The position numbers and the translations under genes were made by a program. DNA of 34,970 nt from a virus. Lineage: Duplodnaviria > Heunggongvirae > Uroviricota > Caudoviricetes. The stretch lies in IMG/VR virus record IMGVR_UViG_2529292908_000012. One strand, written 5' to 3'. The stretch's first letter is position 1. Every line of letters starts with the position of its first letter. Under the pieces are notes generated by a model. The model did not search any database and was not told the origin of the DNA. It saw only the letters and a list, made by a program, of their open reading frames with translations. Positions 23,387 to 24,722 of the stretch are shown here, piece by piece.

Positions 23387-24469
23387 TTACCCCCTGAAAC
23401 CCGGCGGAATTTCGGTGTCCGGTTCAGAAATGTGATTCACGCAACGCAGGCTGACTGCGCCAGCCTTCGGCAGCGACCACGGATTTTCGAAATTCCTGTT
23501 CGGGCCAAAAAACGTCGATGCCTGCTGAACAAATTCAGTTCCCGCTTTCCCGGTAGCCTCCAGGTATCTTGCGTAACGCCTCACGCCATCCAGCACGACA
23601 TCCGGTGACACCCCTTCGCGTAATCTGGCCCTCCAGGCATTGAACGCGGATTTCTTCGGGTTTGACCCTGCCCGATGCGGATATTCACGCCAGACCCGTT
23701 CGAACACGTCAGGATAATCAACTCGTCCCGCAGACGGTCCCGGCATCGCCCGGGTTAACCCAATCGGCTTCCCGCTCATCGCGGAATCGGCTTCAGGCTG
23801 CTGCGGTTGGCGTTGTTGCTCCGGTTCGACGATCAGCACCTGCTGCACACAACGCCCGGAATCTGCTTCCGGTGTCGTGCCAGCTGGTCCTGGACGTTCA
23901 GTCAGAACAGGACAAAAATCCCCCTGTGGGTCCGTGGCGATTTTTTCGCCATGGACCAGAAGGGTTTTATCCCTTTCCTGTTCTTGTTCCTGTTCCTGTT
24001 CTTGGCTTGAAAGGGGCTCTGAAGGGGCTTCAATTTTCCGACATGATTCACGTCTGACATCCAGGTGGAAATCATCCTTATATCTATCATAAAAGGATGA
24101 TAAAAAAGGATTTTCCAGCAACGCGGAATATTCATTTCTTACCCCAGCACAACGGTTATCGCCAGGTTTCAGCGATTCACCAACCTGCCATGCTGCCATT
24201 TCATGCACCCATACAACCTCAGAATCATGGTCATAGCTGCAAAAACCAGCCTCGCAAGCCATTTGAAGCCCCTTAGAAGCCCCTTCAGGATCAAGTCCGG
24301 TTTCGTGAGCAATGTACAAAACAGGCAGGTAATAAAGGCCCAGCATATTGGAATGAGGCGAGGTCATCATATACAACGCCACTACCATACTTTCCGGACC
24401 AGACTTCCTTAGTTTTCGCCCTGTATCGCCTAACCAGAACTGAGGTGAAATTGTTGCGTAATTACGCAT
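23387..24469 (-). CDS. Replication initiator (lambda O analog) with internal repeats
   Basis: 360-aa ORF between cII and the DnaC-like gene; contains a (GAACAG)n-encoded EQEQEQEQEQE run and one copy of the ~60-bp repeat. Confidence 0.7.
   Translation of the reverse strand: MRNYATISPQFWLGDTGRKLRKSGPESMVVALYMMTSPHSNMLGLYYLPVLYIAHETGLDPEGASKGLQMACEAGFCSYDHDSEVVWVHEMAAWQVGESLKPGDNRCAGVRNEYSALLENPFLSSFYDRYKDDFHLDVRRESCRKIEAPSEPLSSQEQEQEQEQERDKTLLVHGEKIATDPQGDFCPVLTERPGPAGTTPEADSGRCVQQVLIVEPEQQRQPQQPEADSAMSGKPIGLTRAMPGPSAGRVDYPDVFERVWREYPHRAGSNPKKSAFNAWRARLREGVSPDVVLDGVRRYARYLEATGKAGTEFVQQASTFFGPNRNFENPWSLPKAGAVSLRCVNHISEPDTEIPPGFRG
23719..23820. repeat. ~60-bp direct repeat, copy 3 (internal to the initiator gene, with a 23-bp insertion)
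   Basis: cgcagacggtcccggcatcgcccgggttaacccaatcggctt...caggctgctgcggttgg, also present at 24500..24560 and 24594..24655. Confidence 0.6.
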
Positions 24470-24499
24470 AGTCCCCTCGCATACAAGATTTACTCCATA

Positions 24500-24655
24500 C
24501 CGCAGACGGTCCCGGTATCTCCCGGGTTAACCCAATCGGCTTCAGGCTGCTGCGGTTGGTGTGACTGCACATTGGTGTGACTGCACATCTTCACAGACGG
24601 TCCCGGTATCTCCGGGTTAACCCAATCGGCTTCAGGCTGCTGCGGTTGGTGTTGT
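24500..24655. repeat. Two tandem ~60-bp direct repeats upstream of the initiator start, separated by a short 2x repeat (gtgtgactgcaca)
   Basis: Near-identical copies cagacggtcccggtatctcc(c)gggttaacccaatcggcttcaggctgctgcggttggtg; candidate iterons or duplication scars. Confidence 0.6.
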
Positions 24656-24722
24656 TGCTGGCGAAATTCTTCCAGATGTGGCAGAATTATTCCCGTGTAT
24701 TGCTCCATGCCCTGCCTGAATA

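Follow-up and report, generated by a model that had tools for sequence, protein, structure and literature searches.

A 34,970-nucleotide (nt) stretch of tailed-phage DNA (Duplodnaviria; Heunggongvirae; Uroviricota; Caudoviricetes; IMG/VR record IMGVR_UViG_2529292908_000012; hereafter the window) carries three ~60-nt direct repeats in and just upstream of its replication initiator gene. Our analysis suggests that these repeats are young and unstable duplicates of a single ~70–94-nt piece of the initiator's interdomain linker, and that the replication origin lies elsewhere, at two clusters of an 11-nt motif (GAAGGGGCTTC) inside the same gene; we assign this reading a probability of roughly 0.65. 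An initial annotation of the window had offered two explanations for the repeats: origin iterons, like those inside the O gene of lambda, or scars of a partial tandem duplication of the initiator 5′ region. Unit size, spacing, GC content, and distribution all speak against the former. As for the latter, the duplication stands and its proposed source does not, because the duplicated piece comes from the mid-gene linker.

Three Copies of One Segment of the Initiator Linker

The initiator ("replisome organiser") gene (360 amino acids; 23387–24469, minus strand) encodes a winged-helix N-domain, a linker with an (EQ)n run and a PEAD-rich part, and a C-terminal module shared with other initiators. 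Separate PHROG matches place the N-domain at about residues 1–155 and the C-domain at about 207–360. Two short-form copies of the repeat, A (24500–24562, minus strand) and B (24590–24660, minus strand), both lie within the 253-nt gap (24470–24722) between the cII stop codon and the initiator ATG. Copy A ends 30 nt before the ATG, and copy B is the first unit after a promoter resembling lambda po (see below). They are 98% identical over 60 nt, with starts 91 nt apart, and a 60-nt match at this level rules out a chance origin. An exact 16-nt mini-repeat, TTGGTGTGACTGCACA, present twice (24556–24587), forms the junction between units A and B. Copy C (23728–23820, minus strand) has the long form, matching copy B at 93–97% on either side of an extra 23 nt, and spans initiator linker codons ~217–248. 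There is no fourth copy of the ~60-nt repeat in the 35-kb window. The initial annotation had located the three repeats and the small twofold repeat correctly, including the third copy with its 23-nt insertion inside the initiator gene. Its description of the repeats as lying around the start of that gene fits the upstream copies A and B but not copy C, which belongs to the mid-gene linker. An assembly artefact was considered and ruled out, as the same structure is found in more than 80 complete genomes, six phage records, and 33 IMG/VR contigs.

The extra segment of copy C is bounded by 10-nt direct repeats, AATCGGCTTC (23762–23771 and 23785–23794), so the short form can be derived from the long form by deletion. 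Indeed, the short form is the expected product of a slippage deletion between these two repeats.

Copy C Belongs to a Module Shared among Initiators

Copy C occupies the low-complexity linker between the initiator N- and C-domains. The part of the gene that includes it (23387–23868) shares about 82% identity with the initiators, of a different N-domain type, carried by phage Tritos, vB_EcoS-640R1, and many Escherichia coli prophages. Copy C itself is common, at 82–94%, to the initiators of Tritos and locus L004 (other N-domain type) and to a second E. coli clade that includes SE11 and O157:H7. Tritos/L004-type genes have the same linker, with three to four GAAGCCGATTC (PEADS) motifs, and the L004 linker is without one 24-nt unit, an in-frame version of the copy C indel. 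This comparison points to copy C being ordinary linker coding sequence of a C-terminal module exchanged between initiators whose N-domains are unrelated, and to a linker that is tolerant and repeat-rich. The PEAD(S) motif encoded by GAAGCCGATTC occurs two to four times in the linker. Aligned with loci L100 and L012, linker DNA at 23728–23800 is read in two frames, GKPIGLTRAMPGPSAG here and READRVVPENTGLSVG in SE11/Tritos, and the frame difference between the window and SE11/Tritos consists of two compensating 1-nt indels.

The upstream copies have a far narrower distribution. Among 84 loci of the N-domain family, an upstream repeat of the internal linker occurs in the window only and in none of the 83 others. 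It is absent from the isolated phages YMC/09/02/B1251 and Fraca, from the second E. coli clade (469 genomes; N-domain 77% identical at the DNA level, same C-module), and from Tritos, L004, and other relatives that share copy C. Upstream copies are confined to one young E. coli/Shigella clade ("Eru4" type) at least 92% identical to the window. That related modules, isolated phages included, lack the repeats argues against the suggestion that they are origin iterons.

Could the three repeats nonetheless be origin or auxiliary iterons bound by the initiator, by analogy with lambda O and its origin? One copy does lie in the initiator linker region, as the lambda iterons do, the repeat core AATCGGCTTC resembles the 11-mer (GAATCGGCTTC against GAAGGGGCTTC, two mismatches), and the copies are kept alike within a genome. 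Iterons are short units of about 17–22 bp repeated in helical phase, however, whereas these units measure 63–94 nt and are spaced by 90–91 nt, or by 113 nt in locus L003, distances that do not make up a whole number of helical turns. GC content is 0.55–0.65 around all three copies (0.55–0.58 in the surrounding sequence), with no adjacent AT-rich stretch, and the motif AAGGGGCTT, which marks the 11-mer clusters, does not occur in 24470–24722 at one mismatch or fewer. Nor does the ~60-nt repeat co-vary with the DNA-binding domain. It tracks the C-terminal module, copy C also accompanying the N-domain of Tritos/L004, which have CGTGAC repeats of their own, and no other homologue of the window's N-domain carries it, while the repeat that does change with the type of N-domain is another, short one. 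Finally, one to three copies are all seen with an intact initiator gene. An iteron role is therefore very improbable, and the ~60-nt repeats probably have no origin function.

The Upstream Array Changes in Copy Number and Recombines

Within the clade, the number and form of upstream units vary. The majority of its complete E. coli genomes have two upstream units, others have one (loci L001, L099, and others), and three are found both as short units (L005) and as long units with a 113-nt period (L003). IMG/VR contigs show two units in 28 cases and one unit in 4–5. Units come in 90-nt and 113-nt forms, and within one genome all upstream units are of one form. The number of 16-mers varies too, among protein clusters of relatives (P0122, P0124). 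Because L003 differs from the window by only 0–5% in the flanking genes, these array changes must be recent. Two apparent array variants of 938 and 848 nt were rejected, as they are BLAST pieces joined with copy C and not new forms.

Copies within a genome evolve in concert, with GAT in all four L003 copies and GAA in all three window copies. They also recombine with each other, as follows from a hybrid copy at positions 2004–2071 of locus L002 (E. coli SW071619; sister locus H142, strain SW07163), whose left part is upstream-derived and whose right part is copy C. In L002 and H142 the N-terminal half of the initiator gene is deleted, together with both 11-mer clusters. The frameshifted initiator remnant of L002 adjoins an intact DnaC-like gene.

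These properties liken the array to minisatellite-like duplications at lambdoid mosaic junctions, which likewise show copy-number polymorphism, concerted evolution, inter-copy deletions, and location at a module boundary. Unlike such minisatellites, the duplicated piece comes from the middle of a neighboring gene, and one recombination partner is essential coding sequence, so recombination with copy C kills the replicon.

The Array Lies at a Seam between Modules

On its cII side, the gap retains clear similarity to lambda. The 62 nt after the cII stop codon align with the lambda cII–O intergenic region and the first O codons. Within them lies a po-like promoter, TGGCGA-17 nt-CAGAAT (24659–24687, plus strand), aligned with lambda TTGAGT-17-CATAAT, which we take to be the oop promoter (po), its −10 element overlapping the O start codon. 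A promoter consensus scan did not call the site at 24659–24687. An oop-like intrinsic terminator (24747–24774 or 24747–24781, plus strand) lies antisense to the 3′ end of cII. Homology to lambda stops at the po −35 element, exactly where copy B begins, and at the other end of the gap homology to other initiator clades starts at the ribosome-binding site (RBS) and ATG. By these alignments, the array fills the joint between a cII–oop module and a replication module, a position that fits a rearrangement scar later expanded.

An open reading frame (ORF) of 72 amino acids (phrog_2751; 24490–24708, minus strand) runs across both upstream copies, and it is here that they translate to QPQQPEAD, as the initial annotation had pointed out. 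One could suppose that this ORF is a real small repeat protein expressed from the pR operon and that the repeats are kept for coding it. The frame stays open across both copies, a 90-nt unit preserves it and yields forms of 42, 72, and 102 amino acids, and the ORF is annotated in several phage genomes. Yet the frame is broken in long-form arrays, as in L003 (41 amino acids), and in P0124, P0128, P0129, and P0130, and several of the homologues, which range from 42 to 102 amino acids, have frameshifted tails. Over the first 27 codons the window and L003 differ by five substitutions, five nonsynonymous and none synonymous. Relatives amount to only 10 clusters in 5.8 billion proteins, all from E. 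coli, and neither Pfam nor NCBIfam gives a match. We consider a coding role scarcely credible. Judged by these sequences the ORF is probably not a real gene, and we dropped it as a candidate because its length (41–102 amino acids), frame, and sequence are not conserved.

A further possibility is that the upstream repeats form a functional noncoding element with a dosage or spacing role. They might set the distance from po/oop to the initiator RBS, supply upstream promoter DNA for po, or bind a host or phage protein at GGTTAACC and at CCCGG-N5/6-CCGGG palindromes, in which case initiator expression or oop levels would be tuned by the number of copies present. The start of the array exactly at the po −35 homologue and the single form shared by all upstream units of a genome are compatible with such a role. 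Against it, no other relative has the upstream repeats, even where both the N- and the C-module are the same, and unit number, unit length (90 or 113 nt), and 16-mer number vary freely. The cII–initiator gap folds no better as RNA than shuffled sequences (z = −0.43), and Rfam has no match in this region. We found no DnaA boxes, integration host factor (IHF) sites, or CII boxes in or near the repeats, and saw no likeness to the cI/cro operator region.

Several points weigh against our preferred reading, that of nonfunctional duplicates with the origin elsewhere, and the first two of them favor a functional element. At least one upstream copy is kept in every member of the clade (81–82 E. coli genomes); retention of one unit is expected even without function, because a single copy cannot be lost by unequal crossing-over. 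The 253-nt gap has only three segregating sites among 23 distinct two-unit sequences, compared with 8 in 155 third-codon positions for the N-domain and 18 in 98 for cII, which may reflect constraint. This low polymorphism is confounded by the youth of the clade and by sequence retrieval, most sequences having been retrieved by an exact 31-mer inside the repeat, and the po and RBS parts of the gap are expected to be constrained anyway. The arrival of the first upstream copy would need at least one illegitimate joint, an event that cannot be reconstructed, and the role that we propose for the AAGGGGCTT clusters comes from comparison only. On balance we regard a functional noncoding element as unlikely.

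We therefore favor the following scenario. Copies A and B would be a lineage-specific, noncoding duplication of a linker piece at the seam between the cII–po/oop and replication modules. The array would then have behaved like a minisatellite, with unequal crossing-over or slippage shifting the number of units (one to three) and of 16-mers, a 23-nt deletion between the two 10-nt direct repeats generating the short form, and gene conversion keeping the copies within one genome alike. Recombination of an upstream copy with copy C would kill the replicon by removing the likely origin along with the N-domain.

Conserved 11-mer Clusters Suggest an Origin inside the Initiator Gene

The candidate origin lies between the repeats. 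Pairs of AAGGGGCT surfaced in our repeat search, inverted with respect to each other, 233 nt apart, and flanking the most AT-rich part of the gene. Candidate iteron cluster 1 (24265–24286, minus strand) reads GAAGGGGCTTC TAAGGGGCTTC on the coding strand and contributes the codons of EGASKGL, residues 62–68. Candidate cluster 2 (24010–24031, plus strand) reads AAAGGGGCTCT GAAGGGGCTTC, is inverted relative to cluster 1, and encodes EAPSEPL. Between them is an AT-rich stretch (24040–24130; GC content 0.32–0.38), a candidate DNA-unwinding region, with a 13-nt inverted repeat (ATCATCCTTATAT / ATAAAAGGATGAT, 5-nt gap; 24071–24101) at its center. At one mismatch or fewer, GAAGGGGCTTC has three matches in the 35-kb window, all within the two clusters and in 11-nt phase.

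We compared this arrangement across N-domain homologues at 77 species-level loci from several phyla (Klebsiella, Citrobacter, Acinetobacter, Burkholderiales, Rhizobiales, Acidobacteriota, and others). Allowing one mismatch, 73/77 loci have AAGGGGCTT at +170..210 and 74/77 have it at +400..520, with units 11 nt apart and a median inter-cluster distance of 255 nt (217–298). About 95% of the homologous loci preserve the two-cluster arrangement in their DNA. Mean GC content across homologues dips by 6–8 points at +360..+420, just before cluster 2. Synonymous sites in cluster 1 are essentially fixed: GAA in 48/49 loci, GGG in 50/50 (background 0.22), GCT or GCA in 51/51 with GCC and GCG in 0/51 (background 0.65 for the latter two), and CTT in 47/51 (background 0.14). 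The encoded EGASKGL is itself near-invariant among homologues. Cluster 2, at the poorly conserved end of the N-domain, keeps its DNA motif while the peptide changes: its orientation is inverted in 49 loci (EAPSKPL), direct in 8 (EGASKGL), and mixed in 17. The unrelated N-domain of Tritos/L004 has the same two-cluster layout with another motif, CGTGAC. Taken together, these patterns indicate that the 11-mers are under selection as DNA and that this selection follows the type of DNA-binding domain.

The CGTGAC repeats lie in the gene as two clusters of four, 260 nt apart, at 3145–3183 and 3405–3443 in locus L012 and at 2279–2317 and 2539–2577 in L004. In Acinetobacter phage YMC/09/02/B1251 (L137), an extra pair of 11-mers lies upstream of the ATG, at −38/−27, as also in L026, L027, L056, and L064, and this noncoding pair is possibly an autoregulatory operator. 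The GenBank coding sequence of the YMC/09/02/B1251 initiator starts late and omits the N-domain.

Structure prediction is consistent with a DNA-binding role for the N-domain. An AlphaFold2 model of residues 1–155 is a winged helix (predicted local distance difference test score, pLDDT, 85; predicted template modeling score, pTM, 0.76), in which EGASKGL begins the helix that occupies the recognition position. Foldseek comparison with solved structures returned generic winged helix-turn-helix (wHTH) proteins only (best E = 3.8e-3). We conclude that the 11-mers are likely to be binding sites of the initiator and to form the origin together with the AT-rich stretch. In this scheme the winged-helix N-domain would bind the two 11-nt-phased AAGGGGCTT(C) pairs, after which the DnaC-like loader and DnaB would be brought in by the C-terminal module.

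Alternatively, the AAGGGGCTT clusters may not be iterons, their conservation being driven by the peptide or by a long-range mRNA helix that controls translation, with the origin elsewhere. The near-invariance of the cluster 1 peptide, in the recognition helix, is what a peptide-driven explanation predicts, and the inverted orientation of the clusters in most loci makes RNA pairing possible. Covariation of the two clusters within a locus is also weak (mean distance 4.13 to the locus's own cluster and 4.49 to those of other loci); the core hardly varies, and we did not use this comparison as evidence. Peptide conservation does not explain why synonymous positions are fixed far above codon-usage expectation, or why cluster 2, which falls where the protein is poorly conserved, retains the motif whichever way it points. 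RNA pairing is not possible in the eight direct-orientation loci or in the 469-genome SE11/O157 clade, which has direct orientation only. Some loci add a noncoding pair upstream of the ATG, and an unrelated N-domain type has the same layout with another motif. We judge a noniteron explanation improbable.

Our more specific proposal is that the 11-mer clusters represent an undescribed, phylum-spanning type of phage/prophage origin whose 11-bp iteron GAAGGGGCTTC doubles as the codons with which the recognition helix of its own initiator begins (EGASKGL), with a second, usually inverted, pair about 255 bp downstream. We give this proposal an even chance of being correct. Our search of the phage literature found no paper with the GAAGGGGCTTC 11-mer and none describing this origin.

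A Slippage-Prone Hexamer Tract Follows Cluster 2

Directly after cluster 2, a hexanucleotide tract (23975–24004, minus strand) encodes (QE)5, an acidic flexible linker. The initial annotation had recognized both this EQ-type run and its proneness to slippage, and the two observations hold up. On the coding strand the tract consists of the codon pairs CAA GAA, CAG GAA, CAG GAA, CAA GAA, and CAG GAA, giving QEQEQEQEQE. Named phages and genomes have 3, 4, or 5 YTGTTC units, and IMG/VR contigs with N-domain DNA at least 97% identical have 2–7, the length changes always being in frame. Across homologues, an (EQ)n run stands directly after cluster 2 in 64/76 loci, with other codons in GC-rich hosts. 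This distribution suggests a conserved acidic linker that drifts in length by slippage, a microsatellite in which slippage would alter linker length and keep the frame. A phase-variation switch was ruled out, since all length changes are in frame.

Comparison with Known Replication Systems

The candidate origin invites comparison with the lambda origin, in which four 18-bp iterons and an AT-rich region lie inside O. In both systems the origin would lie inside the initiator gene, at the junction of the sequences coding for a DNA-binding N-domain and a partner-recruiting C-domain. In both, short repeats adjoin an AT-rich stretch, and the gene follows cII and po/oop in the pR operon. The lambda iterons are at +349..+433 of O and cluster 2 of the window is at +439..+460. 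Unlike lambda, the window has two clusters of 11-nt units, separated by about 255 nt, in place of one array of four 18-mers, a DnaC/IstB-like loader in place of lambda P, and an initiator with no sequence or Pfam relationship to O. The ~60-nt repeats have no counterpart in lambda. A search of the initiator against Pfam-A gave no family at E ≤ 0.01, that of lambda O (Phage_rep_O) included, and in PHROG it matches phrog_1701 ("DnaD-like helicase loader") along with several families labeled "replication initiation protein". Its last 25 residues (23387–23461) show weak similarity to the DnaT C-terminus (E about 0.01; NCBIfam and PDB sequences), and this DnaT-like tail may hint at the mode of DnaB/DnaC recruitment.

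Closer parallels are found among the replisome organisers of temperate phages, where, as in the window, a two-domain organiser is followed by a helicase loader and repeats lie inside the organiser's own gene. SPP1 G38P with oriL is counted among such initiators. The Tritos/Rac-like "phage replisome organiser" shares with the window its C-terminal module and linker (about 82% at the nt level, copy C included) and an arrangement in which two repeat clusters are separated by about 260 nt within the gene, but differs in its N-domain, its CGTGAC motif, and its lack of upstream linker duplicates. The predicted winged-helix N-domain and phased repeats beside an AT-rich region also recall iteron plasmids (pPS10 RepA, R6K π, and F RepE). 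Unlike in these, the putative sites of the window are themselves part of the sequence that encodes the recognition helix, and Foldseek matches are limited to generic wHTH proteins.

Genomic Context

The genes flanking the repeats are all on the minus strand and have the layout of a lambdoid early-right operon. They comprise a cro/YdaS-like gene (25136–25414, minus strand), cII (24723–25019, minus strand; PF05269, E = 6.5e-26), the initiator gene, and, downstream of it, a DnaC/IstB-like AAA+ helicase-loader gene (22640–23380, minus strand; PF01695, E = 5.7e-20); the operon also includes a gene for a DUF1627 protein. Elsewhere in the window, Rfam matches above the gathering score mark a sok antitoxin RNA of a hok/sok-type locus (20321–20495, minus strand) and the small RNA STnc100 (18531–18757, minus strand).

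This region is 100% identical to prophages of several E. coli chromosomes and 98–99.9% identical to PhiR5_2, phiSTEC1589-Stx1c, POCJ13, and 75/02 Stx. The "Eru4" replication region (Fagerlund et al. 2022, PMC8951638) has its type example in Shigella phage 75/02 Stx. By this identity, "Eru4" Stx phages carry the same module as the window. The Eru4 paper classed the module by its proteins and called the protein next to cI one of unknown function, and the words "iteron" and "repeat" are absent from it (PMC8951638).

Implications

The carriers of this replication module include Stx1 phages of Shigella and E. coli (75/02 Stx, POCJ13, and phiSTEC1589) and prophages of about 80 complete E. coli genomes, O104:H4 strains among them, and no origin is described in the papers that define the "Eru4" module. 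Taking the ~60-nt repeats as the origin would misdirect its mapping, for which the comparisons suggest a compact target of two 22-bp sites and an AT-rich stretch instead. The unstable array accounts for several oddities in the annotation of these genomes, namely a "hypothetical protein" of 42–102 amino acids, initiators that are truncated or frameshifted, and prophages whose replicon is deleted, and it could serve as a typing marker.

The ~60-nt repeats are ordinary, and the conserved 11-mer pairs are the more interesting lead. If our more specific proposal is correct, the repeats are bystanders whose recombination with copy C amounts to a one-step switch-off of the replicon. Protein and site would be locked together, since a change in one changes the other, and this would explain the persistence of the same 11-mer across E. 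coli, Rhizobium, Acinetobacter, and Acidobacteria. Conservation of the 11-mer across about 77 species-level loci suggests a widespread family of initiators whose site overlaps their own recognition-helix codons, which would be an unusual evolutionary constraint.

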